Source: Erysipelotrichales bacterium
GTDB taxonomy: Bacteria > Bacillota_I > Bacilli_A > RF39 > UBA660
Reading direction: 5' to 3'
Length of the DNA: 64,000 nt
Assembly: GCA_022508565.1 (NCBI GenBank)
Contig: JAFLUY010000008.1
Location: 9,325-73,324, forward strand
Translations under genes and position numbers: made by a program
Notes under the pieces: generated by a model
The model's database searches: none
Told to the model about the DNA's origin: nothing
What the model saw: only the letters and a program-made list of their open reading frames with translations
Shown: positions 2,373-34,239 of the stretch, one piece after another
Position numbering within the stretch: the first letter of the stretch is position 1
How the letters are laid out: each line of letters opens with the position of its first letter

Positions 2373-2441
2373 CAAAAAAAGTTGAAATATAAAATCTATT
2401 TTTATATATAAATAAAAACACGTTTAACAATCTTTAAAGAT

Positions 2442-3337: not shown

Positions 3338-3352
3338 TTTTTATAATATATT

Positions 3353-3817: not shown

Positions 3818-3823
3818 ATTATT

Positions 3824-4228: not shown

Positions 4229-4582
4229 ATGAAAAGTTTAATTGAATTTATTCGTGAGCATAATCTTAATGAATCTAAACGTACTGAAATACGTATAGAA
4301 GTTAATGATATAAAAGGCTCTGAAGATTTTTTAAGTAAATTGAAATCTTCTTTAGATTCAAAAGATATCTATAATGAAAAAATCGATAGTGGATTAAAAT
4401 TTGCTATCCAAGGAGACAATAAAGAAAAGTATCAAGATGCTTTAGATATTCTTAAAGGATGGGAAGAAGGTAAAGAAAAACTCGAAGGTCCTATTACTGA
4501 ACTTGAAGCCTGGATTACTGAGGAACCAGAAGAAAATGAAGAAGATTTAGGAGAAGATGAACCTGATGATGAAGATGAATAA
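4229..4582 (+). CDS. acidic protein with CTS-like N-terminus (MKSLIEFIRE)
   Basis: 117-aa ORF with a poly-acidic C-terminus (EEPEENEEDLGEDEPDDEDE). Confidence 0.65.
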   Translation: MKSLIEFIREHNLNESKRTEIRIEVNDIKGSEDFLSKLKSSLDSKDIYNEKIDSGLKFAIQGDNKEKYQDALDILKGWEEGKEKLEGPITELEAWITEEPEENEEDLGEDEPDDEDE

Positions 4583-5699: not shown

Positions 5700-5727
5700 A
5701 AAGAAATTAATTAAAATACAAAATAAT

Positions 5728-6138
5728 ATGAGAAAGAAAACATACTTAGACACTCGTTTGGTACATGTTTACCAAAATGATAAAATAACAGTTGCTAAAT
5801 GTCACTGCTATATTAATCTCGATCAACTACCTGTAGATAGAGTATCTCTACAAGGAGTTATTTTAAAATATTTTCCAATGATTGATTTTAATGGAGAATT
5901 TGATGTAGTAGGAAAATCACGGCGTAATGCCGAAGACGAATTTGATACTAATATTGGTTTATATCTAGCAGAATCTAAAGCTCAACAAAAAGCTTATGAT
6001 ATTGCAAATAAATTCTACGCTAAGATTAAAACAATTATTTTAGATAGTTTAAATGAAGTAGAACTTTTAGAACGAAATACAAAATCTTGTAAAGAACATT
6101 GTAGAGAACATATTGTTGAATTGGGAAAAATTAATTAA
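5728..6138 (+). CDS. hypothetical protein
   Basis: 136-aa ORF, last gene of the plus-strand block. Confidence 0.55.
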   Translation: MRKKTYLDTRLVHVYQNDKITVAKCHCYINLDQLPVDRVSLQGVILKYFPMIDFNGEFDVVGKSRRNAEDEFDTNIGLYLAESKAQQKAYDIANKFYAKIKTIILDSLNEVELLERNTKSCKEHCREHIVELGKIN

Positions 6139-7770: not shown

Positions 7771-8073
7771 TTATTCTTTATCTATTAATGCTTTAGCTTC
7801 TTCTGTAGCCATTCTAGCAAATTCTGTCCAATTATCAAAAATATCATCTTCTGTTATACCGTCAGTTTCATCACCGACAATTACACTCATAAGAAAATCT
7901 AAAAGTTCCGCATCTTCTCCTTTCTTTATTAAATCATTAAAGGCTTTATCTCTTTCAGCGTCATTATCAAAACCATCATTATAAATAATTTCTAATTGTA
8001 CAGGAATTGATTGTGCTAAACGACTTCCTAAATCATTTTTGAATTCTTTAATAAATGTTATTAAACTTTTCAT
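7771..8073 (-). CDS. small acidic protein with CTS-like N-terminus (MKSLITFIKE)
   Basis: 100-aa ORF. Confidence 0.6.
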   Translation of the reverse strand: MKSLITFIKEFKNDLGSRLAQSIPVQLEIIYNDGFDNDAERDKAFNDLIKKGEDAELLDFLMSVIVGDETDGITEDDIFDNWTEFARMATEEAKALIDKE

Positions 8074-8791: not shown

Positions 8792-9022
8792 TTATTTATT
8801 CTCTTCAATCCATTTACTGATTCCTTCTTTAAGATATTCATGATCTTGTTTAAAAGATTTCATATAAATCCAGTCAAGTAAATCGTATATAGATTTTGAG
8901 ACCACTTCACTATCATCAATGAATTTTAATTTATTAATAAACTTTTCGGCCATTTCTTCCCAAAAATCTTGACTAATCTCCTTATGTCGAGTTTCAGATA
9001 TAATTTGATTTAATGTTTTCAT
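8792..9022 (-). CDS. small protein with CTS-like N-terminus (MKTLNQIISE)
   Basis: 76-aa ORF. Confidence 0.55.
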   Translation of the reverse strand: MKTLNQIISETRHKEISQDFWEEMAEKFINKLKFIDDSEVVSKSIYDLLDWIYMKSFKQDHEYLKEGISKWIEENK

Positions 9023-9057: not shown

Positions 9058-9345
9058 TCATTGTCTCCAACCAATTTCCGTAGCTAAAGCTCCAAGAACA
9101 AGACGAGAAGTCAATAAACTACCAAATGAACCTTTAGGATCCACTCCAAGTATTTTACATAGAGTTTTCATAATAGCAGGACCAAAAGTTACACCTGTAA
9201 TACCTCCGAGAATAGCTGAAAACAATCCTTCATCTATAGGAATATTATTTTCTTTAGCTTCTTGTAATTTTTGGATCATATCATCATACATTTGATCTTC
9301 TGTGATGATATTGTCTTCATTTATATAATCTTTAATTGCTTTCAT
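9058..9345 (-). CDS. small membrane protein with CTS-like N-terminus (MKAIKDYINE)
   Basis: 95 aa with two glycine-rich hydrophobic segments (GLFSAILGGITGVTFGPAIM and FGSLLTSRLVLGALATEIGW). Confidence 0.55.
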   Translation of the reverse strand: MKAIKDYINEDNIITEDQMYDDMIQKLQEAKENNIPIDEGLFSAILGGITGVTFGPAIMKTLCKILGVDPKGSFGSLLTSRLVLGALATEIGWRQ

Positions 9346-9354
9346 ATTTTCTAT

Positions 9355-11004
9355 TTAGAATTTTTTTCCACCCCTTCTACTTAAATTAGCCATCTGCTCG
9401 GATATCATAAATTTTACATCATCAACACTTAACTCATTTTCAGGATCTTCTCCTAATTGGAAGATTCTTGCACAAGTAGCAAAAGACCTAATGGAAATTT
9501 CCATATCTGCTCCTTTATCTGCTAATTCTGTGAGATATTCATAAGCCTGTATTTTTGATTTTGCTGATAACTTTCCAGGATCAATTGCAGGCATTATTTT
9601 TTTAATTCTATCTAATAGTTGTTGTGTTGTGAAATCCAACGATTGTGTAAATACGCGATTTCTTAAAGCTGTATCAAGTTGTCCAACTGAATAATTTGTA
9701 ATGACAATTACTGAACCAGCATAAGACATGGTTTTCGGTACAGGAACTCCTTCATCATCTTTAAGATCTCCCGTAACTCTATATGATACTAAACGTCCTC
9801 CTTCATCATCTGTACTAGAATCTAATGCTCCTTTAAGAATATTGATGACGTCTTCCGGTGCACGCGGACCAACTAAAGCATCAGCATCATCTATGACTAT
9901 CATTTCTCCTTTATCTTTATGAGTATACATAGATAAATATAATTGTCTAGGTGTACATTTACCTTTAATTATATCAAGATTTTGTCCATTAATATATCCT
10001 TTAGATTTCAATTGAGTCAATACTGTATATGTCTTACCAATTCCAGGAGCTCCGCACAATATTACACCGGGCTGCAGACCTTTAACAACAGAATTTACAT
10101 AAGCATACATATGTTTAAAAGCTGTTTCTGGATCCTGTGTTTCTTTTTTAAATTCTTTAGATATTTTTTCTAAAGACTCATCTTCATTACTTATTTTAAC
10201 ATTTTTCTTAATGGATATGTTTAAATCTTCTAAAGAAGTTGCTCCACCTTTAATAGCATTCAATATAGTTCTATATTCTTTATAAAATTTACTAGCAGCT
10301 TCACGATCTCCCGCATCATAAGCTTCACGATGTTTTCTATATACTTCTTTTTTACGATCTTCTAATTCTCCTTCAAAAATAAAATTATATCCATTTCTGC
10401 TAGCAATAGTAGATTTTACTTCAAATATTTCCGAGATCCTATCATTCGAAATATTTTCATAGATTTTATAATTTAAAGCGCCGATATAAAAATTATGATA
10501 ATGCTCTTTCATAGTTTTATCATAAACTTTACCAGCTAATTCTTTAATTTTAGTTTCCGATAAAGAATAGTCTTTTGAATTTATTACATGATATATTACA
10601 GGAAGATAATATACGATACTAGCTCCCATAAAATTTAAATCTAAATTTCCTTTAACTGGATTATCTTTATCTTCTGACCAAAGTAATTTTTCTAAATTTG
10701 CTTCTGAATAAAAAGTTACCGAATACGGATCAAAAGTTTTAGAATTATTTTTAAAGTTGATAGAAAGAGCTCTAACATCTTTTGTTCCAAAATATATAAA
10801 ATATGATTGACATTCGTCTCCATTTACATTTAAACTATATGGAGCATTGTCTATATATACTTTATCATTTATATTCTTTCTTAAAAGTTTTAAAATTAGA
10901 TCCATTACTTTTTTAAAATCTTCATTTTTAAAACCCTCAAAAAGTCTTTTCGTATTTTCGTAGTTTTCGTTCTTTTTATTTATAAAATCTAAAAAACTAG
11001 CCAT
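9355..11004 (-). CDS. AAA+ ATPase with a large N-terminal domain of unknown function
   Basis: Walker A CGAPGIGKTY, Walker B MIVIDDAD and a sensor-like VIVITN. The N-terminus MASFLDFINK is a degenerate CTS-like sequence. Confidence 0.75.
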   Translation of the reverse strand: MASFLDFINKKNENYENTKRLFEGFKNEDFKKVMDLILKLLRKNINDKVYIDNAPYSLNVNGDECQSYFIYFGTKDVRALSINFKNNSKTFDPYSVTFYSEANLEKLLWSEDKDNPVKGNLDLNFMGASIVYYLPVIYHVINSKDYSLSETKIKELAGKVYDKTMKEHYHNFYIGALNYKIYENISNDRISEIFEVKSTIASRNGYNFIFEGELEDRKKEVYRKHREAYDAGDREAASKFYKEYRTILNAIKGGATSLEDLNISIKKNVKISNEDESLEKISKEFKKETQDPETAFKHMYAYVNSVVKGLQPGVILCGAPGIGKTYTVLTQLKSKGYINGQNLDIIKGKCTPRQLYLSMYTHKDKGEMIVIDDADALVGPRAPEDVINILKGALDSSTDDEGGRLVSYRVTGDLKDDEGVPVPKTMSYAGSVIVITNYSVGQLDTALRNRVFTQSLDFTTQQLLDRIKKIMPAIDPGKLSAKSKIQAYEYLTELADKGADMEISIRSFATCARIFQLGEDPENELSVDDVKFMISEQMANLSRRGGKKF

Positions 11005-11069
11005 ATATTATGTTTCTTTTATTTTTCTTATATATAAAAATTGTCAATTTAATAATATCAGATGTATTA

Positions 11070-12767
11070 TTAAATCCATATTATTTGAATAGTTTCGGCA
11101 GTTAAATTATCATCAGTATTCATCTTTTGTTTATCTGGATTAAATCCTTTATTATAGTAATAAGTAATCGGCCCATGTAATACTGGAACTTTTAATTTAG
11201 ATGTTATTGAGATGTTCCCGAATAAATCTAATCCAACTGGTTTATCTAAATCATAAATCTTTTTTATTTCTTGATATTGATATGTGCCATTGACAAATTT
11301 TAATTCATAATCATAATAAATTCCATTTTTATATGCCTTTTCATTTTCTTCCGAAATTATTTCTAAATCGAATGATTGAATATCTGGTATTTCATCAATA
11401 ACTTTTTTAATCAAATCAGATTTAGCAATAAAATATACATTATAAGACAACTCCATAAAATAAGTTGCCAAGACATTACGGATTTGAGTAGAAATACTAT
11501 CTTTTTGATAATCCGAAGGAATTTTTACATAACAAATAATAGCATATTTAGAAATTATTGGATCTTGAAATTTCATACTCATTCCACCAAAAATCTTATT
11601 AGAATTATTTAAAGTATGAAGTACCATTTCTTTTTGATTGTCAGTAAGCAACAATTCTGAAGGTTCTAATTCTAAATATTCTTCAGGAGAAGTCAATTTC
11701 GATTTTTTATTAGATAGGGATGATACCGTAACGGCTAATGAATTTTTTTCAGTCCAAATATTTGTCTGGCCGATGAATGAGAATCTTTTTAGAAAAAGTT
11801 TAAAATTATCTTCAGTAGCTAATACTAAATTTCTAGATTGGTAACCTATCATAGTTTGAATTTCTTCCATTGTATCAGCGTCAGTACCTCCAGAAATATA
11901 GTTACTCATTTTTATACGTAAATATTTATTGCCATCAACTTTATTTCCGTAAGCATCAACAACACCACTTGCTATAAAAAATCCCGTAGCAGAAGATTTA
12001 TCGATGTTTCCTAAATCTCCATTGTGAGCGATATATCTTACAGAGATGTTTTGCCCATCTAATAATTGTTTTCCATGAACTCCATTACCAAACATCACAG
12101 AAAACCCTTTTTCAAATCCAATAGTAAGAACAAATTCCTTACTATTTTCGGTCATATCATATAAACAAGCAGCTTGAGTATATTTTTCTCCGTCTACAGT
12201 AACTTCGATATATTCTTTATCATATAAAGATGGGACAGCTATTTCGAATGATTCTAGAGGATTTCCTTTAGCAGTATATGAATGATTTTTCCATGTTCCT
12301 TGTACCACTTTTATTTCGTGAGTTACTAAAGGTTTAGCTAAATCGAATATATAAAAATCTAATGGTAATAAAGCGATATAATCTAATCCTGTAGTGGCAT
12401 TCTTAATGATGGCTCCATTTTTTAAATATATTTTAGAATTACTATGTTCTAACCCATTAGTAACAAAATTAGAAATTACGAATGTTCCAGATGCCGCTGA
12501 TCCATAAAAAGCTTCATATCCCGACAATCTAGCTAAACCAAATATTGATTTTTTACGAGTTGCTGTATAGACGTTTTGTTCTGTAAAAGCGTCTTCTATG
12601 TAGAACATCATATTTTGAAGGACTCCCTTTATTCCTTCAAAAACTAAACCAAAAATATTTGATTTAGAATATTGGTATCCGGCATCTGATAATGTTTTTG
12701 ATAGATAGGCTCGTATACTATTATCAAAATTGTGATAAGAAGTTTCAATTACTTTAAATAGTTTCAT
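11070..12767 (-). CDS. baseplate wedge protein (baseplate-J / T4 gp6-like), assigned mainly by position
   Basis: 565-aa ORF immediately downstream of the gp25-like gene, as in the myovirus W-J gene order. No diagnostic motif was recognised by eye. Confidence 0.4.
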   Translation of the reverse strand: MKLFKVIETSYHNFDNSIRAYLSKTLSDAGYQYSKSNIFGLVFEGIKGVLQNMMFYIEDAFTEQNVYTATRKKSIFGLARLSGYEAFYGSAASGTFVISNFVTNGLEHSNSKIYLKNGAIIKNATTGLDYIALLPLDFYIFDLAKPLVTHEIKVVQGTWKNHSYTAKGNPLESFEIAVPSLYDKEYIEVTVDGEKYTQAACLYDMTENSKEFVLTIGFEKGFSVMFGNGVHGKQLLDGQNISVRYIAHNGDLGNIDKSSATGFFIASGVVDAYGNKVDGNKYLRIKMSNYISGGTDADTMEEIQTMIGYQSRNLVLATEDNFKLFLKRFSFIGQTNIWTEKNSLAVTVSSLSNKKSKLTSPEEYLELEPSELLLTDNQKEMVLHTLNNSNKIFGGMSMKFQDPIISKYAIICYVKIPSDYQKDSISTQIRNVLATYFMELSYNVYFIAKSDLIKKVIDEIPDIQSFDLEIISEENEKAYKNGIYYDYELKFVNGTYQYQEIKKIYDLDKPVGLDLFGNISITSKLKVPVLHGPITYYYNKGFNPDKQKMNTDDNLTAETIQIIWI

Positions 12768-12770
12768 AAA

Positions 12771-13124
12771 TCATTTAAACATCCAATTTTTTAATGGCTT
12801 TAAGTTTCCATTGTTTCCCATAATAGAAATCTTCACAACATAGATATCACGTAAGGTTCCTTGCATAACTTCAGTATTTACATGAACATCTAAAAGATTA
12901 CAAAAATATGTTTGAGCATGGATTTTCATGAGGAGATATTGATCTACATCACTAGGAGAAGGGCTCATAGTCCATAAAAATTGTTCAAAATTTACTCCAT
13001 AGCTATAATCTCCTAAAAGTTCAGTTTCTTCAGTACCGAACATCACATCTAATTCTTGAATAGCCGCGTCTAGAATATCATCAACTATCAATCCTTGAAA
13101 AAGTTTGAAATCATATTGTGCCAT
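12771..13124 (-). CDS. baseplate wedge protein, GPW/gp25-like
   Basis: 117 aa. AIQELDVMFGTEETELLGDYSYGVNFEQFLW fits the gp25 pattern I..L...T..GE......FG..L..LLF. Size and position also fit. Confidence 0.55.
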   Translation of the reverse strand: MAQYDFKLFQGLIVDDILDAAIQELDVMFGTEETELLGDYSYGVNFEQFLWTMSPSPSDVDQYLLMKIHAQTYFCNLLDVHVNTEVMQGTLRDIYVVKISIMGNNGNLKPLKNWMFK

Positions 13125-13127
13125 AAA

Positions 13128-13517
13128 TTATATTCCTGTAATTTCATAATCTCCTGAAGAAATATATTCGCCAGTATTATCTAAAATATGATATTGTCCA
13201 CCTGCTGCTTTTAATAAAGTTGTATCTATTCTAAAGATCACATAAACTTCATTTCTAGCAAATTCAGAAATTTGATTTCCTTCTATTGACAATCTAAAAG
13301 ATTCAATCTTATTCATATAGTCTGCTAGATTTATTCCTACATTTTGTATCAATCCCTGCTTCATATAGATTTTTTGTAAATCATATGCACGATAAAATAT
13401 AGGTTTATATATAACCCTAGGACTTGATTTAGTATTTACTAAAGAATTGTCATTAGTGATCTTTTTTTCAACTATACAATTTATCTTATCAATATTATAA
13501 TATATTCCTTTTAACAT
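13128..13517 (-). CDS. hypothetical protein (baseplate-module neighbour)
   Basis: 129-aa ORF with a 3-nt gap to the gp25-like gene. Confidence 0.55.
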   Translation of the reverse strand: MLKGIYYNIDKINCIVEKKITNDNSLVNTKSSPRVIYKPIFYRAYDLQKIYMKQGLIQNVGINLADYMNKIESFRLSIEGNQISEFARNEVYVIFRIDTTLLKAAGGQYHILDNTGEYISSGDYEITGI

Positions 13518-13558
13518 TTAGATTACTTTTTTAAATCTGTTTCTTTAATTAAAAATTA

Positions 13559-16500
13559 TTATTTTCTTATATTTGTCTTAGCTTCTAAAACAGTTGAATT
13601 TGTTAATATAAATTCTCCTTGTCCATCTCCATCAAATACATAAGCTGTACCTATATTCGCTTTCCATTTAATATTAATGCCATAATCAAAATAAATTATT
13701 TGCGGAAAATCATAAACTTCTCCATTTATTTCATAATTTATTATTCCATTTCCGAAAACTAATTCTAATTTGATTTGTTTAAGTTTAGCAACCGGAGCAA
13801 TTTGATATGCCTGATTTATATTATCAATTTTTAAAGTACCGAAATTATTTTCGATATTATAATTAGGGAGAGGTAAAGCGGACCAATTTATCTTTTCATT
13901 ATAATATGAATCATATAATGAGTTTTCCGTGAAAGAAACATCATTTATAAATATAGATTCTACTCCTTCATTCAATATTATTTCTACAGATATGCCGATT
14001 TCTTCACTGCTGATATTTATAGATATTTCATTATTTATGCCAATCAATGATAATGCCTGATTTTTTAAACAAGTCAATTGATATCCTGACTTTTCGAAAA
14101 CTTCCCACGACAATACATCTCCGTATTTAAAAGTTAATGTTTGTGAGCTGTAATATTTATTGTTATTCAATATTACATAATCAATTCCTTCATCAAGATT
14201 TAATCTTATGATAAATGTTTGTCTTTCTGGAATAGGAGAAATTATTACTTCTTTCGGATTATCAACTAAAATAGTCTTTTCATAATTATCCATATAATAT
14301 CCTTCCATAGTAAAGATTCTATATCTTAAAGTTGTACCATAAATTACATTTTCCTTTAAATATCCAGTAAATACTATAGTTTCTAATAGTTCATCATTAT
14401 CATAAATAAGAATCTTATCAATTCCATTTTTAACAATAACTTTAATAGGTACTTCTATTTTATTAGTTTCTAAATATAAGTCTGTTACTGATTTCGTTAT
14501 TTTAAATTGGTAATTTTGATTTATATCAGATAATTCATATCCTTCTTCAAGAAATATTTGCATATTGACATAATCTCCATACTTAAATGAGAAAGTTGTT
14601 GCATTAGTATCGATTTTTTGTCCATTACATATAATATATTCTATTCCAGAATCCCAATGAATAAATAAAAGACAACTAATTACATCGGTTTCAGGAGAAA
14701 TATTAGTATCTTCTGTTAAAAGAAATTCTCCTGAAAGATCACTTATATTACGATATCCTTCAGATAGTTTTGCCGTCCATTTTATTGGAGTATCATAATC
14801 ATATTTTAAATATTTTGTAGTATAATAATTTTTAATTTCATTACCATCTTCTACACTTATTTCTGAAATACTTTTATCTATAATTATTCCTAAAGTTTTC
14901 TTTTTAATATTTATTATTGGTTTGATTTCAAAAGAATCTATATTGATAACTTCAATTATTCCAGATTTTTCTTTACATTCATATTTATCTTCATTTTCTA
15001 ATACAATTTCCCATAATATATTATTTCCATAAATACAAGTATCTTCATATATTGGTTGGTCTACTACGAAATTTCCAGAATTCATACTAATCTTTATAGA
15101 ATATATTCCTGGTTCTGTATAGACTTTATATGGAATCAATATTAATTCGGTCATTATTGATATCTCCGTTTTAGGTTCAATAAGTCTAACATATCCATCT
15201 AAAGCATTTGTATATCCATCACTTATATATAATCGATAGTTTTTAAGTAAAATTACTTTCCACGAAATAAAAGTACCATAATCATATTCTCTTTCGAAAT
15301 TATCTAATATTTGTATTTCTTCTCCATTAATGATTAATTTATCAAATCCATTTCGGTATTGTATTTTAAATAATACTTTTTTGATTTCTGGTATCGGAGA
15401 TATAATCAATTCTTCAACAATCTTCTCGATATATCCTTTATTGATTTCACATTTATAAGATTCTATACATTCGACTGTCCATGATATAGAGTCTCCATAA
15501 TCTACATAAATCAAATCATTTTTAAAATATTCTTTTTTATTGACTATAATTTTTGATATTCCATAATTGAATCTTATTCTTATAGGTATTTGAATTCTTT
15601 CTGTATCTATTTCAATATTCTTATTATCAGTAATTACGAAATCATCTGATTTTTTAGAATAATCAATAAATTTATATCCTTCATTAGGAATTCCTTTCCA
15701 AGATACATGATCTCCATAAGATATTTCAAAAGTTTCCGTTATTTTTTCTGAATCGGCTTCTAAAATAATGGGTTTTGTTTCGTTAATTGAAATTTCTACT
15801 TTACAATTTTGTAATCCAAAACTTAAAGTTCTTGGCTCTCCTTTAGCCATGGGACTTATTGTAAGATCTTCAGTTATTATATTTTCATACTCTTCATTTT
15901 CTTTGATTTCATCATTTATCAAATAGAATTTATCCGATAGTACTACTTTCCATTTTATAATTTCTCCATAATCAAAAGATAATACAGCATTTTCTTTATA
16001 TTTCAATCTATTCAATTCAATATAAGAAATTCCTTTATTGATTACGATATCTACAATAAATTTTGTTGGATAAGAAATTACATCGATAACATGTCCTTCT
16101 GGATTATTTAAAATAATTGTTCCGAAAGAATCCGATTCAAATTCAAAACCGTCTCGTAGGTTTGCTTTCCAAGAAATCTCAGATCCATAATCAAAATATA
16201 AAGATATTTCATTATTCTTTATAATATATTCTTCTTCATTTATATATAATGAATATATTCCTTTATCACAATTGAAAGTTACTTTTATTTTATCTGGAAC
16301 AATTGTTGGATTCAATTTAGTATTTTCTTTTATAATAAACTCTTTATTTTCATCAATACAAAGATATCCTTTTATTATTTCAACATCCCAGTTAACTTTA
16401 TCTCCATAATCAAATTCAATTTTTTCTTTTAATTCTTTTTGTTCGTATACACAAATCATTTCCATAGACTTTATTATTGGAGCAGGACCTGATGATGTTT

Positions 16501-17120
16501 TCGTTATAAGAAACCTTTTATTTCCTTCTGGTTTATTAGAAATCCATTTTTTATTTTTATAATTTCCTGTAGAAAATACAATATTATTGTCTTCTAAATT
16601 ATCTCCTTCAAATAAGATTTCTTTAATAGTATATCTTGTTTTAGCAGAAATTGTAATAGAGTTATCTTTATCAAAATAAAGTCCCCAACCATTATCTACA
16701 TCATCCTCTTCATAATATAATTTAGGATTATTGTCAGATTCATTAGATTCTCCTATTATAGTGATTAAAGAATTCTTTATAGGATTATCTGTTAAAATTA
16801 TCTCATTTGTATTATTTGTTTCAATTCCAAAATCTTCTAAATTATTAAAATCTATCTTTAAATTTGTTTCAATATATCTTTCATTAGAATTAAAATAATC
16901 TATATCATTTACTGTATATTTTATTATGTAATCATTATATATAAGTTTTAAAAATTTCTGAATCTTATTAGTATTTATAGAAATTATATAGTCATCTTCA
17001 AACAAATCTTGATCTCCTTGTAATATATCATCAGTCTCATAACCTTCTTTCAATATAGCTTTCCATTCTATATGAAATCCATAAGGACATTCTATCTCTT
17101 GTGAATCAAAATATAATTGG
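13559..17120 (-). repeat. protein-level tandem array of ~85-aa beta-rich modules (Listeria-Bacteroides/InlB B-repeat-like)
   Basis: The YGD.I.W....EGY signature recurs at least 14 times. The boundaries are approximate. Confidence 0.6.
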
Positions 17121-18532
17121 TTATTTATAATTATTTTTTCTACTCCTTCATCGATATCAATTTTATATTTTAACGGCTTAGATATAAGAAGTACTCTACT
17201 TTCTAGAGTATCATTAATCATATATTTGAAAATTTCTTTAGTTATCATCACCATATTGCTTTCAATAACGTTTCCAAGATATCGATCAATAAATCTAGCT
17301 CTACAAACTAATACTTCAGGATATTGTGTCCATCTTTCAAATATATTGTTTAATTGAAATGAAAAATCATCAAAATCTAAATCCCAATTGATTTTTTCGT
17401 ATACGACATTATTAAAATTAACATCTGTAGAAATCTCTATTTGATATCCACACATGTGCATTTCTTCGCCTGGCACGTCTCCATACATTTCTGCTTCATA
17501 TTCGTCATCATTCTCGTCAGGATCATATATGATTCCTCTGTATTCATTTATGCTAACATCATTATAATATTCATAAGCTTGTTTGAAATTATCATATAAT
17601 GAATTTTCTGGAAGTTCAAATCTACATGCTAATATAGGTAATTCACTTAATTCAAATTTAGCAGTAAGTTTAAAATCTACATTATTAGTAAATGTACAAG
17701 AATTAGGCAATAGATCTTCTTCTAACATATACTTTTTAGTATTAGGATCAATCCCAGAATAAGGAAATAAAGTAACTTTTATTAAATTTGTAAATAACGA
17801 ACTGTCCCCAGTTTTATAATCATCTCCAAGATATTCTTTCATAAAATCTCCTTTTAAACTACCAATCTTATATAAAGATTTAAATAATTTCATTGGGACA
17901 AAAGAAGTATCTTCATATCCATCTATAATATTTAAAGAATCATCATAAAAAGTATTTCTAAATAATTCTTCAATATTAGGTATGGCAAATTCTACATATT
18001 CACTATAATAATTGTTTGAATGAATAAATTCGTTTTCTGATTTAGTACGCAAATTTGAATTAGGAGAACAATACAAATGAAAATGGATAGAATTTATATA
18101 AGAATCAACATATATAAGATATTTTTGGTCTACTTTATTATGCGGATGATAAATTCTAATTAGATCACAATTAATTTTAGCCAATATTTTATTTCCTTCC
18201 TCATCAATATTTCTATAAATATACCCTAAATCATTTAAATTATATCTAAAAGAATCATTATAGTCTTGGATATTTTCAGAGAAATTTGTTGTTTGATCAT
18301 AATTAGCAAAAGAATAAGTATTTGGATATGCTAATTTCCATTTATTTTCTCTAGACATTTCCCAAATATCTTTATCGATGACATACACATCAGTATCAAA
18401 AGTTAAATTGTCAACAAATTCAAATTTTCTTAAAATAACAAATTCATTTGAAGTTTTTATAATCGAATCATTTGGTATATATCGATCAATTATATAAATA
18501 TTTTCTCCTAAAATTATCTTATCTCTTTGCAT
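13559..18532 (-). CDS. large repeat-domain tail fibre / receptor-binding-type structural protein
   Basis: 1657 aa. After roughly 470 N-terminal residues there are at least 14 tandem ~85-aa modules, each ending in [FY]xYG[DS]xIxW...EGY (for example FDYGDKVNWDVEIIKGY, FDYGSEISWKANLRDGF, VDYGDSISWTVECIESY). Confidence 0.7.
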   Translation of the reverse strand: MQRDKIILGENIYIIDRYIPNDSIIKTSNEFVILRKFEFVDNLTFDTDVYVIDKDIWEMSRENKWKLAYPNTYSFANYDQTTNFSENIQDYNDSFRYNLNDLGYIYRNIDEEGNKILAKINCDLIRIYHPHNKVDQKYLIYVDSYINSIHFHLYCSPNSNLRTKSENEFIHSNNYYSEYVEFAIPNIEELFRNTFYDDSLNIIDGYEDTSFVPMKLFKSLYKIGSLKGDFMKEYLGDDYKTGDSSLFTNLIKVTLFPYSGIDPNTKKYMLEEDLLPNSCTFTNNVDFKLTAKFELSELPILACRFELPENSLYDNFKQAYEYYNDVSINEYRGIIYDPDENDDEYEAEMYGDVPGEEMHMCGYQIEISTDVNFNNVVYEKINWDLDFDDFSFQLNNIFERWTQYPEVLVCRARFIDRYLGNVIESNMVMITKEIFKYMINDTLESRVLLISKPLKYKIDIDEGVEKIIINNQLYFDSQEIECPYGFHIEWKAILKEGYETDDILQGDQDLFEDDYIISINTNKIQKFLKLIYNDYIIKYTVNDIDYFNSNERYIETNLKIDFNNLEDFGIETNNTNEIILTDNPIKNSLITIIGESNESDNNPKLYYEEDDVDNGWGLYFDKDNSITISAKTRYTIKEILFEGDNLEDNNIVFSTGNYKNKKWISNKPEGNKRFLITKTSSGPAPIIKSMEMICVYEQKELKEKIEFDYGDKVNWDVEIIKGYLCIDENKEFIIKENTKLNPTIVPDKIKVTFNCDKGIYSLYINEEEYIIKNNEISLYFDYGSEISWKANLRDGFEFESDSFGTIILNNPEGHVIDVISYPTKFIVDIVINKGISYIELNRLKYKENAVLSFDYGEIIKWKVVLSDKFYLINDEIKENEEYENIITEDLTISPMAKGEPRTLSFGLQNCKVEISINETKPIILEADSEKITETFEISYGDHVSWKGIPNEGYKFIDYSKKSDDFVITDNKNIEIDTERIQIPIRIRFNYGISKIIVNKKEYFKNDLIYVDYGDSISWTVECIESYKCEINKGYIEKIVEELIISPIPEIKKVLFKIQYRNGFDKLIINGEEIQILDNFEREYDYGTFISWKVILLKNYRLYISDGYTNALDGYVRLIEPKTEISIMTELILIPYKVYTEPGIYSIKISMNSGNFVVDQPIYEDTCIYGNNILWEIVLENEDKYECKEKSGIIEVINIDSFEIKPIINIKKKTLGIIIDKSISEISVEDGNEIKNYYTTKYLKYDYDTPIKWTAKLSEGYRNISDLSGEFLLTEDTNISPETDVISCLLFIHWDSGIEYIICNGQKIDTNATTFSFKYGDYVNMQIFLEEGYELSDINQNYQFKITKSVTDLYLETNKIEVPIKVIVKNGIDKILIYDNDELLETIVFTGYLKENVIYGTTLRYRIFTMEGYYMDNYEKTILVDNPKEVIISPIPERQTFIIRLNLDEGIDYVILNNNKYYSSQTLTFKYGDVLSWEVFEKSGYQLTCLKNQALSLIGINNEISINISSEEIGISVEIILNEGVESIFINDVSFTENSLYDSYYNEKINWSALPLPNYNIENNFGTLKIDNINQAYQIAPVAKLKQIKLELVFGNGIINYEINGEVYDFPQIIYFDYGINIKWKANIGTAYVFDGDGQGEFILTNSTVLEAKTNIRK

Positions 18533-18618: not shown

Positions 18619-19263
18619 ATGAGACCGATTCAAGTATTATATATCCACGATTTTAATGGATCAGCATATGAAGAGACTTATAAAAATATTGAAGAATCTT
18701 TAAAAAAATATCCTAAAATAATACTACATACAATATCATGGGATTTAAAAGATTCTAGTATTTCAGTAGAAAGACTAAATATAATAAATTATATAAACGA
18801 AAATAAAATTGATATATTAATCGGAAATTCTGTTGGAGGATATATTATATCGTCAATAAATAAGCCAAAAATATTAATGAATTCTCCTTTAGATAAGATG
18901 CAATTAGGAATAGTAGGGTTATATCCTGATTTTTATGAATCTTATAATAAAGAATTATGGGAAAATTATGGGCCAAACAATACTGAAGATATTTGGATTT
19001 GTTCCTCATCTAAAGATAATTTATTTGGGACAAAATCTTATTCTTTAGTTAAAAATCTTTTTACAAATTCAAATATAATCCGAAATATTTTTGAAGACGA
19101 ACATGTATTGAAATTTGAAAATATTGAAAAAGTTATTGATGGAATGTTCAATATGATAAAATCTAATGACAAATTATTAAATCGTTTAGAAAATATTACA
19201 GAAGAAGACGTGCACAAATATATGAAAAATGTGCAAAATGATTCTATTATTGATATATATTGA
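18619..19263 (+). CDS. YqiA-like alpha/beta-hydrolase esterase
   Basis: VLYIHDFNGS (compare YqiA LYLHGFNSS), GNSVGGY nucleophile elbow, MNSPLD, and a late His (EDEH). Confidence 0.65.
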   Translation: MRPIQVLYIHDFNGSAYEETYKNIEESLKKYPKIILHTISWDLKDSSISVERLNIINYINENKIDILIGNSVGGYIISSINKPKILMNSPLDKMQLGIVGLYPDFYESYNKELWENYGPNNTEDIWICSSSKDNLFGTKSYSLVKNLFTNSNIIRNIFEDEHVLKFENIEKVIDGMFNMIKSNDKLLNRLENITEEDVHKYMKNVQNDSIIDIY

Positions 19264-19278
19264 AAATTATATATTAAG

Positions 19279-19566
19279 ATGGAAAATCATATATTAGAAT
19301 ATAAAAATACTCTTCAAAGTATTTTAGAGAAATATAATCAAAGAACAGAAGTAAAAATAAATGTTTGTGAATATGAACAGACAGATGAAATAATGAAAGA
19401 TCGTTATTTAGAATTTGATTTTAATATTAAAGATTTTACAGATGAATTAGCAGATGAGATTTTAGATTTTACTTTTGATTGTTTGATAAATGATGGAATT
19501 GAGATAATTCCATCAGATAAAATGGTTGAGATATTAATTGAAAATCAATATGAAATAATTTTTTAA
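19279..19566 (+). CDS. hypothetical acidic protein
   Basis: 95-aa ORF followed by a terminator. Confidence 0.55.
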   Translation: MENHILEYKNTLQSILEKYNQRTEVKINVCEYEQTDEIMKDRYLEFDFNIKDFTDELADEILDFTFDCLINDGIEIIPSDKMVEILIENQYEIIF

Positions 19567-19591
19567 AAAATAATTAATATTTTTTAATTCT

Positions 19592-19620
19592 AAGAACTAA
19601 ATTAATTAGTTCTTTTTTAT
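19592..19620 (+). terminator. rho-independent terminator
   Basis: Perfect 9-bp stem aagaactaa (19592-19600) / ttagttctt (19606-19614), then ttttat. Confidence 0.65.
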
Positions 19621-19643
19621 TTTTAATAAAAAACTAAAAGATA

Positions 19644-20726
19644 ATGACAGATCAGGAACTAATAAAAAATATTCAAAAACATAAGAAAATACTTTGGGAA
19701 AAACATTTAACAAAAGAAGAATTAATCTATTTAGAAAATAGATTTGAAAAATTTAACTCATATGCAGAGTCTTATTATAGAATATTATATAAAATAGAAG
19801 AAATGCCAAAATGTCCAGTATGTAAAAAAACATTAAAATTTATTTCATTAGGCAGAGGCTATGTAAATTTCTGTTCTCATAAATGCGCAGCAAAACATAA
19901 TCAAGAGCATTATAGAGAAATTTGTTTAAAAAGATATGGAATTGATCATCCATTTAAAAGTAAAGAACTACAAGAAAAAATTCATTCGAAAGAAATGTCT
20001 GAATATCATAAAAAGAAGTCATTGGAAAAATGGGGTACTGAACATCCGATGCAATCTGAAAAATATAAAAAATATTTTAAAAAATGTATTGAGAAAAAAT
20101 ACGGAAATGGAGTAACTAATGTTTGGCAGGCTGAAGAAGTTAAAAAGAAATTAAAAAATACATGGTTAGAAAAATATGGGACATCCGTCCCTAGTAAATC
20201 AGAAGAAATAAAAGAAAAAATTAAACAAACAAATTTAGAAAGATACGGAGTAAGTTGCACATTGCAAATTCCTGAAATTAAAAGTCATACTAATACTCCA
20301 GAAGCTCAAAGAAAAATTCATGAATCTAAGAAAAGGAATGGTAGCTATGGATATTCTAAAAATGAGCTTGAAATTTTTAATAAATTAAAAGAAAAATTTC
20401 CAAAAATTATTTTTCAATATTTAGATATTAATAGATATCCATTTAAATGTGATTTTTATATTCCTGAATTAGATTTATTTATTGAATACCAAGGATATTG
20501 GACGCATGGACCTAAACCATATAATGATAATGATGAAGATTGCCTCAAATTTGTACAAAAATTAAATAATAAATATTTAGAAACTAATAAAAAATGTTAT
20601 TTAGATGCTGTTGAATCATATACTATAGGTGACGTAAATAAAAGAAAAGTAGCCCAAGAAAATAACTTGAACTACTTAGAATTTTTTAATATGAATGATT
20701 TTTATTATTGGTACAACAATCTTTAA
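19644..20726 (+). mobile_element. free-standing homing-endonuclease-like gene (Zn-finger + 5 x KYG repeats + Vsr/DUF559-like PD-(D/E)xK C-terminal domain)
   Basis: CPVCKK...FCSHKCA zinc-finger-like motif. Five tandem [KR][YW]G...QSxE...K repeats. The C-terminus SKNELEIFNKL...CDFYIPELDLFIEYQGYWTHG has a D...E-x-Q/K nuclease-like core. Its stop codon overlaps the stop of the convergent rimK-like gene. Confidence 0.45.
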
Positions 20727-22228
20727 AACATCTCTCCTTTAAGCATATCTTTTCTAGTAGGATTTATAATATATCCCATTTTAGACATCAAGTCACGATT
20801 TATAAGTACTGGAGTAGATTTCTTTCTGTTATCTACTAATGCAAATTCTGCATTTTTAAAACGTCTTGTACCAATTTTAATTTCATCAATCAATACAGTA
20901 TGGCGTTCTTCGCGTACTTGGCCAACCATTGGATTAGAAGATCCATGGCGTTTAAAAATATATTTTTCTCCATTAATTGTAGCCTCAATTTTATCTCCTT
21001 TTAATTCTACTTTATCACAACCAAGTGTACTTGATTTTGAGCCATTGCCGGTATCAAATTTAGCTTCTAAATCAAATTGTTTGTCTTCTATAAAGAATGT
21101 CATTTCTTCTCGGTATCCAATAGATTTAGGTTGCAATACTAATTCAGAAATATCATTAATCGCTTCTAAAAGAATTCCCATAAAATTTTCTCCGATGACT
21201 TCTGAAATACCATCTGTGCCAGGACTAGAATTCCATTCAAGCACTACATTGTCTCCTATTTCTGGATTTGAACCTTTTTTAAGAGGCATAATATCGACGG
21301 CACACCAAGGCATATTTGAAATTCTAGCAACTTTTAGTGCGATTTCTTCCTGTTCTTTTGTAAGTTCTACTTTTTCTGCGGAAGCTCCTAATGAAACATT
21401 TGATCTAAAATCTCCAGAAAGCTTCACCCTTTTCATACAAGCCAATATTTTTTGTTCGGTTCGATTAGTCAATACATGTACACGGATGTCTCCTCCATCT
21501 GCTTCTTCCTTCTTTTGCAAAAGTAATTCTAATTCCTCGTTGACTGCAAACATCGCTTGAAGCATCGCAAGAATGTTTTTATTGTTACACATAAATACTC
21601 CGGTACCTCCGTGTCCATCTAAAAGCTTTACAACATATTCTTGTTCTTTATTGTCTTCAGACCAATTATCATATATCATTTTTAATTTTTCTGATAAAGA
21701 TTCCATTCCTTTTTCAATATCGTCTTTTCCAAGAAGAGTAAATCTAGGTTGAGGAATTTCATATCGTTGCATCAATACAGCTGATTGATATTTGTTAGAA
21801 GCTCTTTTAGCAGATTGAATAGGATTAATCACAAATAATCCCCATTCTTGTAATTCTTTAATACATTCACAACACATTTCAGAATCTTGTGCTCCTAATC
21901 TAGCAATAACAATCGTATCTACATTAGATTCATCTTTAATCTTAATAGATTCTTTCTTATCCCAAATTTTAATCTCATTATTATTTGCTTCGTATGTAAC
22001 TTCTTCTGCCACAAATACTTTTAAAGCAACATGAGTATCTTTCAATATTTCTTTAAGATTTTCTAAAGTTTTATTTTTTTTGGGATCTCTTTCATTTGTA
22101 AAAAATAAGATTGTCGAAAAGAAATATTTATCATGAGAGTCTTTTGATCTATTTTTCATTTCTTGTTTTTCGAAAAGAACTTTAGACATCTCAGTTTGGT
22201 CTATTAAAAAATCACTAAAACGTTTCAT
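20723..22228 (-). CDS. rimK: RimK-type ATP-grasp (alpha-L-glutamate) ligase fused to a C-terminal RimB/PF05618-like retropepsin-type protease domain
   Basis: VVKLLDGHGGTGVF, GGDIRVHV, GDFRSNVSLGA and WNSSPG match E. coli RimK blocks (from memory). The C-terminal EAKFDTGNGSKSSTL...ALVDNRKKSTPVLINRDLM...IINP matches the AK-DTGA..SS...DR....L-GR pattern of the 'ATP-dependent zinc protease' domain. Confidence 0.75.
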   Translation of the reverse strand: MKRFSDFLIDQTEMSKVLFEKQEMKNRSKDSHDKYFFSTILFFTNERDPKKNKTLENLKEILKDTHVALKVFVAEEVTYEANNNEIKIWDKKESIKIKDESNVDTIVIARLGAQDSEMCCECIKELQEWGLFVINPIQSAKRASNKYQSAVLMQRYEIPQPRFTLLGKDDIEKGMESLSEKLKMIYDNWSEDNKEQEYVVKLLDGHGGTGVFMCNNKNILAMLQAMFAVNEELELLLQKKEEADGGDIRVHVLTNRTEQKILACMKRVKLSGDFRSNVSLGASAEKVELTKEQEEIALKVARISNMPWCAVDIMPLKKGSNPEIGDNVVLEWNSSPGTDGISEVIGENFMGILLEAINDISELVLQPKSIGYREEMTFFIEDKQFDLEAKFDTGNGSKSSTLGCDKVELKGDKIEATINGEKYIFKRHGSSNPMVGQVREERHTVLIDEIKIGTRRFKNAEFALVDNRKKSTPVLINRDLMSKMGYIINPTRKDMLKGEMF

Positions 22229-22574: not shown

Positions 22575-23216
22575 ATGGATAAAGATAGAACATTTAAAAT
22601 TACCGAAATAGTAGACTTAGATAAAACTTCTTTTTATTCTTTAGTCAATTTGGATTTAAAAGAAGTTGGAGCAGTAATCATTAAAGATGGAGAAATCAAA
22701 ATGAATTTAAATAATGGAGAAAATACTTCCTTTAATGACGATTATGAATCTTTGTTAAGATATGTAAAACGAAATGGTTTATGTTTTGTAAAATTAGATG
22801 AAGAGTCTAGATGGGAAGAATTCAATCCAAATCCGCTTGGTAAAAAGGTTGATGATTGTTCAATTAGATCATATTGTGCTGCTAAAGGGATAGAATGGGA
22901 TACGGCTTTTGATTATGCTTGCGAAATAGCAGAAAAGGAAAAAGATATTATAAATTCAGGAACGGTTTGTCATAAAGTAGTTACAGAGAAACTTGGAATG
23001 AAACTTAATAAAGAGTCTAAAAAAGTAAAACCTAAAGACCGAATAACCGTTATGGAGTGGGCTTGTCTGCATAATTCAGGAACTTATATACTTGATTGTG
23101 GAAAACATTATTGTACAGTTTCTGAAGGCAAATATTATGATTCATGGAATTCAGGAAAACAAAAAGTAAAAGCTTTTTATGAATTTCCGGATGAATCTTA
23201 TGTACCGGAAGAATAA
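22575..23216 (+). CDS. hypothetical protein; the C-terminal half may be a papain-like Cys peptidase fold
   Basis: 213 aa. DDCSIRSYCAA (Cys95), GKHYCTV (His178) and YYDSWN (Asp189) are spaced like a Cys-His-Asp triad. Weak call. Confidence 0.55.
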   Translation: MDKDRTFKITEIVDLDKTSFYSLVNLDLKEVGAVIIKDGEIKMNLNNGENTSFNDDYESLLRYVKRNGLCFVKLDEESRWEEFNPNPLGKKVDDCSIRSYCAAKGIEWDTAFDYACEIAEKEKDIINSGTVCHKVVTEKLGMKLNKESKKVKPKDRITVMEWACLHNSGTYILDCGKHYCTVSEGKYYDSWNSGKQKVKAFYEFPDESYVPEE

Positions 23217-23601: not shown

Positions 23602-24738
23602 ATGGAAAAAATAAATGTTTTTGATAAAACAAAAAATTTTTATAAAGTAGGTTGCAATTTTGATTTGGAATTAATTGATAAAATTGCGGAATTGAATGAA
23701 AAATACAAAGATAAAGCTAGGGTAGTTGAATTTTTTGGAAGTGATGCTACACATGAAGAGTTGACGGCAAGACCTGGTTGGAGACTTCCTGATATTTCAA
23801 AAGAGTATTTTGAAGAATATATTAAAAAAGCTAAAGAAAAGGGAATATTATTTAATTATACAATGAATTCTATTCAACCTTATGGTAGTAAGAATGAATT
23901 GTTGGCACATAAAAAAGAAGTACAAGAATTTGTTAAATGGCTAGAAAATATTGGAGTATACAGGATTACTATTGCTAATCCTATAATGGCTTTAATAATT
24001 AGAGAAGTATCAAATATCGAATTAGAAATGTCGTGTATTGGACATGTCGATACTGTTACCCAACTTAGATTCTATCATGAAGAATTAGGAATAAATAAAT
24101 TTTGTGTTTCGATTCTTAAAAATAGAAATAAGAAATGGCTAAAGAATGCCGCAAAATATGCTAATGAAAATAATATTATATTAGAACTTTTAGCAAATGA
24201 ATTTTGTTCAGTTGCCGGAATAGGTAAAAATGGCAGTCCATACGCAACCCATTGTGCTTTTAGAGATTCTTGTTATCTTTGTCATGCGATGAATCGTACA
24301 AAAGAAGATTCGATGTCATATAATAATTATCCGATGAATTATTGTATGTCAGCTAGAAATTCAACTCCTGAAGCTTGGCTTAGAACTCGTTGGATTCGTC
24401 CAGAAGATTTACATTATTATAATGAAATTGGAATAAATTATTTTAAAGTTAGTGGTAGAACCGGCACAACAGAATATCTAATAAGAATTATTGAAGCTTA
24501 TATGTCTGAAAATTTTGATGCTAATCTACTTGAACTTTGGAAACCTCTTGAAACTATATATAACGGAGTAAAAGAATCTTCTCATAAACATACAGTGAAT
24601 ATTCCAAATAAAAAACTCGATAAATTTTTGGATAAATGGTTTATAGGAGAAGGATGGGAATGTGCTGATGAACTTTGCGGAACTACTTGTACATATTGTG
24701 AAGAATTTGCAAAGTCTCATAATCTCTACGAGAATTGA
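23602..24738 (+). CDS. peptidase-U32-family-like protein (family of the O2-independent, prephenate-dependent hydroxylases RlhA/TrhP/UbiU-UbiV)
   Basis: The block order resembles a U32 TIM barrel: ARPGWRLPDISKEYFEEYIKKAKEKGILFNYTMNS, ENIGVYRITIANPIMALIIRE, IELEMSCIGHV, ELGINKFCVSILKNR, ILELLANEFCS...THCAFRDSCYLCH (4 Cys). A second Cys cluster, CADELCGTTCTYC, lies at the C-terminus. The PROSITE U32 signature is only partly matched. Confidence 0.5.
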   Translation: MEKINVFDKTKNFYKVGCNFDLELIDKIAELNEKYKDKARVVEFFGSDATHEELTARPGWRLPDISKEYFEEYIKKAKEKGILFNYTMNSIQPYGSKNELLAHKKEVQEFVKWLENIGVYRITIANPIMALIIREVSNIELEMSCIGHVDTVTQLRFYHEELGINKFCVSILKNRNKKWLKNAAKYANENNIILELLANEFCSVAGIGKNGSPYATHCAFRDSCYLCHAMNRTKEDSMSYNNYPMNYCMSARNSTPEAWLRTRWIRPEDLHYYNEIGINYFKVSGRTGTTEYLIRIIEAYMSENFDANLLELWKPLETIYNGVKESSHKHTVNIPNKKLDKFLDKWFIGEGWECADELCGTTCTYCEEFAKSHNLYEN

Positions 24739-24984: not shown

Positions 24985-25206
24985 ATGGCAAAACAAGAAG
25001 CGATTACAGTTGATGGTGAGGTAATTGAAGCTCTTTCGAATTCAATGTTTAGAGTCGAAATTGATAATGGACATGAATTATTGTGCCATATATCTGGGAA
25101 AATCCGAATGAATAATATTCGTATCATGCCAGGAGATAGAGTTAAAGTAGAAATGAGTCCTTATGATTTATCAAAAGGAAGAATATCATATCGATATAAA
25201 CAATGA
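24985..25206 (+). CDS. infA: translation initiation factor IF-1
   Basis: Alignable over its full length with E. coli IF-1 (MFRVE..NGH....HISGK.R.N.IRI..GD.V.VE..PYDL.KGRI..R). 73 aa. Confidence 0.92.
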
Positions 25207-33855: not shown

Positions 33856-34239
33856 ATGAAAAGTTTAGTAGAATTTATTGCAGAATCTTTTAAAGGAGAT
33901 TTTGAGAAAAAAATGGAATTTCAAGAATTTTTCAATTTTTGGGCATCTAAAAAAGGATATAAAATGTGGACTGATAAAAAGAATCCTGATGATATTCAAA
34001 TCGATGATGATAAGTTTTGGAAAGATTTTGAAAAATGCGAGCCAAAGACTATTAATGATGATGAATTAAGCGCTAAAGATTTAGAAAACTTATATTTGAA
34101 TATTTATCCCGATAGAGAAATGATTATTCATGTTACTGAATTAAATAAAAATGATTGGGATTATCGAATTGAAGATACTAAAAAACCTAAAAGCGATTAT
34201 AATTTGCAATTCACATATAAAGAAAATATTTTTAAATAA
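33856..34239 (+). CDS. hypothetical protein with CTS-like N-terminus (MKSLVEFIAE)
   Basis: 127-aa ORF. Confidence 0.6.
   Translation: MKSLVEFIAESFKGDFEKKMEFQEFFNFWASKKGYKMWTDKKNPDDIQIDDDKFWKDFEKCEPKTINDDELSAKDLENLYLNIYPDREMIIHVTELNKNDWDYRIEDTKKPKSDYNLQFTYKENIFK

Follow-up and report, generated by a model that had tools for sequence, protein, structure and literature searches.

Does a single phage polypeptide both attach glutamates to a protein tail and trim them off again? The question was raised by one gene in a 64,000-nucleotide stretch of contig JAFLUY010000008.1 (positions 9,325 to 73,324 of the forward strand; assembly GCA_022508565.1, filed as an Erysipelotrichales bacterium), hereafter called the window. 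A preliminary description, made from the letters alone, had read this gene as a phage-encoded fusion of the glutamate ligase RimK with a protease of the RimB type. The gene lies on the minus strand at 20723..22228, with its stop codon at 20723-20725, and is an uninterrupted open reading frame (ORF) of 501 codons that starts at the first ATG past the upstream stop; all of the peptides on which the description relied (VVKLLDGHGGTGVF, GDFRSNVSLGA, SSPG, AKFDTGNGSKSS, DNR and LINRDLM) are present in its 501-aa translation. Sequence comparison, structural models and analogy together lead us to give a probability of about 60% to the reading that this protein is a bifunctional writer and trimmer enzyme of a jumbo phage of the myovirus type, with host ribosomal protein S6 as its leading candidate substrate. 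That the gene belongs to a phage is borne out by its surroundings. The window, which has a G+C content of ~27%, also codes for a homologue of a baseplate-wedge protein, for SSB, for NrdD and for a clamp-loader-like AAA protein, and an identical fusion protein is present on a metagenomic contig of 377,382 bp; because of these genes and the length of that contig, we take the window to come from a myovirus-type jumbo phage. At E ≤ 0.001 the fusion protein has 1995 homologues.

Residues 36-357 (21158..22123, minus strand) make up a complete RimK-type ATP-grasp ligase as judged by profiles and models, with an N domain at about residues 36-140 and the ATP-grasp at residues 143-357. The family of RimK-like ATP-grasp domains, PF08443, covers residues 143-357 with its entire model (positions 1-188 of 188; E = 8.4e-27; 94.4 bits against a cut-off of 21), and the NCBIfam family TIGR00768 (rimK_fam) aligns residues 51-357 to model positions 9-276 of 276 (E = 4e-37). 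A weak match to PF18030 (Rimk_N) was found at residues 82-136. Among solved structures, the best sequence matches were the RimK proteins of Pseudomonas (7qyr, E = 3e-21) and E. coli, and identity to RimK is ~24%. An AlphaFold model of the full-length fusion (27 homologues) had a predicted local distance difference test (pLDDT) score of 78 overall and of 80-93 across most of the RimK part. When this model was compared with the PDB using Foldseek, the top 22 matches were all RimK chains (7qys, 4iwx and 7qyr first), over ~323 aligned columns and with template modelling (TM) scores of up to 0.88 relative to the target, consistent with the three-domain ATP-grasp fold; by both sequence and fold, RimK ranked ahead of LysX and ArgX. 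These results indicate that the N-terminal module is a RimK-type ATP-grasp ligase, as the preliminary description had proposed, and a divergent member of its family. One detail of the description has to be corrected, in that its extra N-terminal domain of ~130 aa is mostly RimK's own pre-ATP-grasp domain: TIGR00768 sets in at residue 51, the model superposes on the whole of RimK and only residues 1 to ~35 lie outside it.

The residues expected of a working ligase are in place. Alignment with 7qyr equates K141 in the ATP site of RimK with K201 of the fusion, R211/S212/N213 (catalytic arginine and ATP site) with R275/S276/N277, and the Mg-binding positions (D248/E260/N262 region) with D312, E331 and N333; the roles of the Mg triad and of the catalytic arginine are partly our assumption from general knowledge of ATP-grasp enzymes. 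R189 and N262, which contact the last glutamate of a bound poly-Glu chain, correspond to R249 and N333, and R64, another chain contact, corresponds to R110 (residue roles in Pseudomonas RimK, including the poly-Glu contacts of R64, R189 and N262, from PMC10092738). All of these positions are invariant in the 27 homologues. The ligase is followed by an inter-domain linker at residues 358-370 (21119..21157, minus strand), where pLDDT dips at 367-369; alignments to RimK stop at 357-358, and the protease alignment begins at G371.

Profile and fold place residues 371-490 (20759..21118, minus strand) in the retropepsin-like aspartic peptidase family PF05618 (DUF785/RimB/RloA). The predicted catalytic Asp-Thr-Gly, located from the translation and the family alignment, is D392-T393-G394 (21047..21055, minus strand), and an invariant Asn395 follows it. 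A retropepsin model of RloA3 matched the window sequence alone, weakly (E = 2e-4). With a profile of 13 family sequences, a search of the PDB returned 2pma (Legionella Lpg0085, DUF785; E = 2.5e-6) and RloA 9g58 (E = 9e-4), with 9g59 also matched, and in this alignment the DTG of the fusion family lines up with the DTG of 2pma and RloA. Four of the 13 members match PF05618 individually (best E = 7.4e-8), and with a profile of 21 sequences the yield was 779 proteins, the top matches of which mostly have precomputed PF05618 assignments at E ~1e-30. Modelled alone, the domain reached a pLDDT of 88.9 and a predicted TM score of 0.81, and Foldseek matched this model to 2pma (E = 9e-9), then to RloA and RloA2 (TM 0.72-0.76) and then to dozens of HIV-1 protease entries (E ~3e-4). 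The D392-T-G motif is invariant across family alignments, including the proteins of the cultured phages Mosig and YerA41, and DTGN is present in 82 of 82 related loci; the LINRD motif of the fusion aligns with LLGRD of 2pma, and its NRD is invariant in the family. In RimB, the aspartate equivalent to D392 (D31) is needed for proteolysis (PMC11957791). With the C-terminal domain as its sole query, a word-indexed search yielded no more than 11 scored candidates and was of no help. We conclude from profiles and models that the C-terminal domain is a divergent retropepsin-like peptidase domain of the PF05618 type. Of the two profile searches that the preliminary description had suggested, the one with PF08443 succeeded directly and the one with PF05618 only by way of family members and the family profile. 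The structure prediction it had also suggested agreed with it on both halves, the ligase part resembling RimK and the C-terminal domain 2pma, RloA and HIV-1 protease; retropepsin similarity is thus present at the family level, and the catalytic residues of the ATP-grasp are present as well.

The joined architecture recurs widely. The C-terminal domain was searched for exhaustively with HMMER, which gave 126 clusters at 50% identity; in ~45 of them the protein is full-length, with the protease after RimK, and the remainder are standalone domains or fragments. A relative of the domain is found on at least 463 viral contigs of IMG/VR. We examined 82 loci (80 viral, two from genomes) and found the RimK-then-protease fusion as a single ORF in 77 of them; one locus is split and four have the protease domain only, three of these being cut by a contig end. 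The reverse order, protease then RimK, occurs in none of the 126 clusters and none of the 82 loci. BFVD held no full-length fused match, only standalone phage proteins with the protease fold or an ATP-grasp. Two cultured phages carry the fusion architecture, Pelagibacter phage Mosig (Mosig_00005, annotated 'putative glutathione synthetase') and Yersinia phage YerA41 (YerA41_066, annotated 'structural protein'), whereas metagenome pipelines name relatives 'RimK family alpha-L-glutamate ligase' or 'S6--L-glutamate ligase'; the protease half is annotated in none of the records of relatives that we examined. When 185,579 species-representative genomes were scanned with a narrow pattern, just two loci were found, both on contigs of metagenome-assembled genomes from ruminant guts; because the pattern was narrow, this near-absence from cellular genomes applies only to close relatives.

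These comparisons bear on the simplest objection, that an assembly error or an erroneous frameshift has run adjacent rimK and rimB genes together, or that the protease part is a decayed remnant. Such an origin would fit the few relatives that are split or standalone (L051, in which RimK is a separate upstream ORF, and L032, in which the protease stands alone) as well as the many standalone homologues of ~135 aa, but it can hardly produce a continuous ORF in so many independent loci, in the genomes of two cultured phages and in ~45 separate clusters, with DTG and NRD invariant and with a protease domain that folds confidently in the model. We consider an artefact exceedingly improbable and rejected it on these comparative data. 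The claim that a phage joins a RimK ligase and a RimB-type protease in one polypeptide therefore holds: the two catalytic modules are each intact and kept so by purifying selection, their fusion is obligatory, and their order is fixed across hundreds of phages. The two genome-derived loci also place the phage clade in ruminant guts. One of them, ONIZ01000001.1 (410,106 bp; GTDB label uncultured Firmicutes RUG343), coincides with the IMG/VR contig UViG_2799112330_000002 (410,106 bp, same coordinates) and therefore looks like a jumbo phage mis-binned as a bacterium. The other, JAFRDD010000173.1, comes from goat ileum and is labelled Clostridia bacterium RGIG2387; it carries the fusion gene too, and both loci look like mis-binned jumbo phages.

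What would such an enzyme do? We propose that the N-terminal module, ~320 residues in length, would use ATP and Mg2+ to extend an acidic C-terminal tail by alpha-linked L-glutamate (or by an amino acid like it), or alternatively would produce free poly-alpha-glutamate. The C-terminal module of ~120 residues would, by analogy with RimB, be an aspartic endopeptidase that cleaves stretches of poly-Glu and raises the activity of the ligase. In crystals RimK is a tetramer (PMC10092738), and retropepsins act as homodimers (PMC11957791); the fusion would therefore pair protease domains beside ligase sites at a fixed 1:1 stoichiometry, and a single protein would determine how long the tail on the substrate becomes. 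By analogy again, host S6 would be the leading candidate for that substrate. We infer by this analogy glutamate as the added amino acid, the poly-Glu specificity, the oligomeric arrangement and the target alike, and the direct manipulation of host ribosomes that the preliminary description had foreseen would follow, through S6, from homology only. The invariance of the equivalents of RimK R64, R189 and N262 was counted in favour of poly-Glu handling.

Several observations weigh against this reading. On the ligase side, the fusion misses the curated cut-off of TIGR00768 (128 versus 143.4 bits), as expected of a divergent member, and falls far below that of NF007764, the equivalog for 30S ribosomal protein S6--L-glutamate ligase (66.3 versus 331 bits), and S6 as the substrate is therefore not inferable from sequence alone. 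The lower substrate loop of RimK, SNLHRGG, reads SNVSLGA in the fusion, which replaces H215/R216 with S279/L280; at the equivalent two positions Mosig has S-Q and YerA41 has H-Q, and because the pair is both replaced and variable in phages, substrate handling may differ from that of RimK. On the protease side, the PF05618 model failed to match the window's own sequence, also when the 136-residue domain was scanned separately at E ≤ 10. The earlier identification of the C-terminal ~130 aa as a RimB-type domain is thus upheld by the family profile, the fold and the DTG motif, but not by a direct match of this one sequence. Finally, the translation-related neighbours of the gene in the window (below) are not conserved beside it in three relatives (loci L086, L087 and L088).

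Some of these points would be equally at home with other products or substrates. The main product might be free poly-alpha-L-glutamate, serving the phage as a polyanionic counter-ion, as a DNA mimic or as a glutamate store, with the protease acting as ligase activator and chain-length regulator. Indeed, RimK makes poly-alpha-glutamate from free glutamate, and RimB strongly stimulates it (PMC11957791). In E. coli RimK, the H215/R216 pair makes the cleft of the active site narrower, so that its loss could favour longer chains, and the gene has no conserved neighbour that would be a candidate substrate. The conserved acceptor-holding residues (equivalents of R64, R189 and N262) are present either way and do not discriminate, but the literature we searched gave no use of poly-alpha-glutamate for a phage, and we regard a free-polymer synthase as unlikely. 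A different class of substrate is a further alternative, in which the analogy with S6 misleads and the ligase acts on a phage protein, on a small molecule or cofactor (as MptN, CofF and LysX do) or with an amino acid other than glutamate. MptN is the second-best NCBIfam match (113 bits), every equivalog threshold is missed by a wide margin, the substrate loop departs from that of RimK, and an ORF of the window at 4229-4582 ends in the very acidic tail EDEPDDEDE. Yet an enzyme obligatorily joined to a peptidase would be expected to act on peptides or proteins, RimK proper is matched better than LysX or ArgX in both fold and sequence, and the neighbouring ORF with an EE tail (22575-23216) is not conserved beside the fusion gene; we find this alternative quite improbable. 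The writer-plus-trimmer reading with a protein tail as its substrate remains the one we prefer.

A separate matter, compatible with the writer-plus-trimmer chemistry, is how and when the enzyme would reach its target. Residues 1-11 of the fusion, MKRFSDFLIDQ (22196..22228, minus strand), are a degenerate match to MK[ST]L[IV][ED][FY]IxE, a pattern that resembles the capsid-targeting sequence (CTS) of phage T4, and residues 12-35 (22124..22195) form a low-confidence linker that varies greatly in length and sequence among homologues (pLDDT below 50 for residues 1-32). Thirteen other first-ATG ORFs in the window start with this pattern, for example as MKSLVEFIAES. Nine lie on the plus strand (2442-2690, 2687-3337, 3353-3817, 4229-4582, 33856-34239, 41663-42571, 42568-43494, 46613-46888 and 49864-50364) and four on the minus strand (7771-8073, 8792-9022, 9058-9345 and, more weakly, 9355-11004). 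The protease gp21 of T4 cleaves after (L/I)-x-E, and Alt of T4 is a packaged enzyme that modifies host proteins. MKSLVEFIAE agrees with the T4 sequence MKTYQEFIAE (PMC8442874) at 7 of 10 positions and ends in I-x-E, like the T4 prohead-protease sites. Except for one paralogous pair, the tagged ORFs are unrelated beyond the tag, and T4 internal proteins likewise have only the tag in common (PMC3012670).

The fusion may accordingly be a capsid-delivered effector, packaged into the head through a T4-like leader together with the other tagged proteins and injected with the DNA, so that, like Alt, it would act on S6 or other host proteins in the first seconds of infection. Its start is the next-best among first-ATG ORFs directly after the tagged set, and many homologues start with clearer tags (MKTFNQFLES, MKKLTQLLES, MRTFEEFLAN) followed by the hypervariable linker; the homologue ranks first for the tag in L086 and seventh in L088, directly after six tagged ORFs. 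The gene is, moreover, co-oriented with and directly upstream of a block containing a baseplate gene in the window and in the three relatives, and the label 'structural protein' in YerA41 appears to mark proteins detected by liquid chromatography and tandem mass spectrometry in purified particles. Against delivery in the capsid, the tag-profile score of MKRFSDFLID is 10.5 (background -6.6 +/- 7.7, z ~2.2) compared with 19-37 for the clearly tagged ORFs, its identities number 3 of 10, and MK starts are common in AT-rich genomes. Positions 8-10 read L-I-D in place of the I-x-E cleavage motif, and the L087 homologue has a different, longer N-terminus and does not rank for the tag. The YerA41 particle proteome (63 proteins) also held ribonucleotide reductase and polymerases, which makes contamination possible, and a row for YerA41_066 itself was not found in the particle-proteome supplement. 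That the tag directs proteins to the capsid in the window's phage is itself carried over from T4. The 'degenerate CTS-like start' of the preliminary description is therefore a fair description of the next scorer after the tagged ORFs and a weak case for this particular protein, and we hold its delivery in the capsid to be possible but doubtful. A short N-terminal tag common to otherwise unrelated proteins is nonetheless what T4 internal proteins and Alt have, and the tag set, which recurs in the related locus L088, may mark a large group of proteins that this clade of jumbo phages packages into the capsid or ejects. By eye, no promoter motif common to the fusion gene and the tagged ORFs was seen, their upstream regions all being AT-rich, and the upstream element TATAAATA is too frequent in the genome of the window to inform on a common promoter. 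One tagged protein of 117 aa (4229-4582, plus strand) has an extremely acidic end (EEPEENEEDLGEDEPDDEDE); that it might be a co-packaged substrate is pure speculation.

Around the fusion gene, the window codes on the plus strand for a Peptidase_U32-family protein (23602-24738; 34.6 bits against a cut-off of 22.4), 1.4 kb away, and for a canonical bacterial-type IF-1 (24985-25206), 2.8 kb away. RlhA and TrhP, which hydroxylate rRNA and tRNA, are members of the U32 family, and the U32 and IF-1 genes could be a translation-related cluster; their closeness to the fusion gene in the window was counted in favour of the writer-plus-trimmer reading. An ambitious extension would make the fusion one of a widespread, so far unrecognised class of phage effectors, a writer-eraser loaded into the capsid by way of the T4-like tag and injected, which rewrites the acidic tail of S6 or another host protein while IF-1 and the U32 homologue bias translation to phage messages; as a whole we consider this improbable. 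The preliminary description had placed IF-1 and a DnaJ-like protein in the same genome, and besides IF-1 the window does encode a J-domain protein of 356 aa (51529-52599, plus strand) with a canonical N-terminal J domain (DYYKILGI...KYHPDK), whose PHROG match is a family of unknown function. PADLOC gave no match that would link the fusion gene to a defence system, and searches for structured RNAs and tRNAs near it found none. The ORF at 22575-23216, whose product ends in VPEE, like the EE end of S6, was considered as a substrate and dropped, having a homologue in none of the related loci. In YerA41, a gene annotated as having 'some similarity to LysW' (YerA41_074, L002 8763-9119) lies ~3.6 kb downstream of the fusion homologue; LysX, a relative of RimK, modifies LysW, a carrier protein with an acidic tail, and YerA41_074 could be a carrier-type substrate.

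In the three relatives, the fusion gene sits between nucleotide-metabolism genes and a baseplate/structural block. Conserved downstream of it are genes for a large protein (613-1657 aa), a protein of ~115 aa, a baseplate-wedge homologue of ~560 aa and an AAA protein, co-oriented with the fusion gene (window 9355-18532, minus strand; L086 11693-18697; L087 11746-19622; L088 15091-20515). In the window, this block is separated from the fusion gene by three inserted plus-strand ORFs (18619-20726), one of which codes for a DUF7487 protein. Among the nucleotide-metabolism genes of L088, a TnpB-like gene (4843-6090, plus strand; OrfB_IS605 and Cas12f1-like_TNB) is inserted. L087 encodes on its minus strand (2395-4167) a protein with a type IX secretion system C-terminal sorting domain (Por_Secre_tail), a domain specific to Bacteroidota, and the genes of the window have no obvious Shine-Dalgarno sequences in their AT-rich leaders; together these two observations hint at a Bacteroidota host. 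The NrdD-like ORF of the window (47023-48558, plus strand) matches only positions 4-379 of 718 of its PHROG profile, and ~200 nt past it lies a 356-aa ORF with a TTG start (48757-49827, plus strand), so that nrdD could be split or interrupted; no Rfam intron was detected in the window.

Glutamylation of S6 by RimK and RimB is one of the few known routes by which bacteria retune their ribosomes post-translationally, and to our knowledge it has so far been studied only as a bacterial system. The conservation of the fusion in hundreds of phages, from T4-like pelagiphages to 400-kb jumbo phages of gut and rumen, suggests that viruses, too, make use of protein glutamylation, and the fusion offers a compact single-gene tool for testing this. 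In databases these proteins go by the names 'glutathione synthetase', 'structural protein' or simply RimK, which leaves their protease half hidden from annotation.

The idea of the fusion as such has a precedent in bacteria. Little et al. (2025, J Biol Chem; PMC11957791) purified RimBK, a natural bacterial RimB-RimK hybrid with an active protease, and RimBK occurs in ~12% of rim-containing bacterial genomes, mostly of Flavobacteriales and Rhodobacterales; phages are not mentioned in that paper. Like RimBK of Desulfotalea psychrophila (DP2392), whose RimB part cleaves glutamylated S6 (PMC11957791), the fusion unites a RimB-type retropepsin domain and a RimK ATP-grasp in one polypeptide. The protease of RimBK, here compared by its published description, is N-terminal (residues 1-163), whereas that of the fusion is C-terminal (371-490), and RimBK is reported only in bacteria, whereas the fusion family is found on viral contigs. 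The reversed domain order raises the possibility that phages and bacteria joined the two activities independently; if so, tight coupling of adding and trimming would be functionally important.

In Pseudomonas, RimK attaches glutamates to the C-terminus of S6 and also polymerises free glutamate to poly-alpha-glutamate, while RimB, a retropepsin-like endopeptidase, trims glutamates from glutamylated S6, cuts poly-Glu internally and strongly stimulates RimK (PMC11957791, PMC7343187). Both activities are predicted for the fusion, which has the RimK fold (TM 0.88), a PF05618 fold with DTG, and the ATP-, Mg- and several poly-Glu-contacting residues of Pseudomonas RimK. There, RimK and RimB are separate proteins of the rimABK operon, whereas the fusion is a single chain with no RimA (EAL phosphodiesterase) partner and differs from Pseudomonas RimK in its low identity, its replaced H215/R216 pair and its additional N-terminal leader of ~35 residues. 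The closest solved structures to the C-terminal domain, RloA/RloA2 (PDB 9G58, 9G59; PMC12239564) and Lpg0085/DUF785 (2PMA), belong to the same Pfam family and have the DTG and (G/N)RD motifs in common with it, but the residue after DTG is an invariant Asn in the fusion family and Ala in 2pma and RloA. Those proteins are also standalone, RloA with signal peptides that predict secretion, whereas the domain of the fusion is joined to a ligase and lacks a signal peptide. Phage RimK-like ATP-grasp proteins have been annotated as well, namely the 'ribosomal protein S6 glutaminyl transferase' of PHROG 2599 (cyanophage S-RIM32, Methylophilales phage Melnitz); their matches span only the ATP-grasp (query ~104-348), and they have no annotated protease domain. 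A description of a phage RimK-protease fusion was not found in the literature searched. Thus, the bacterial RimBK hybrid and phage RimK-like genes were known already, and what is new with respect to that literature is a fusion of reversed order and DTGN type that is found throughout phages.

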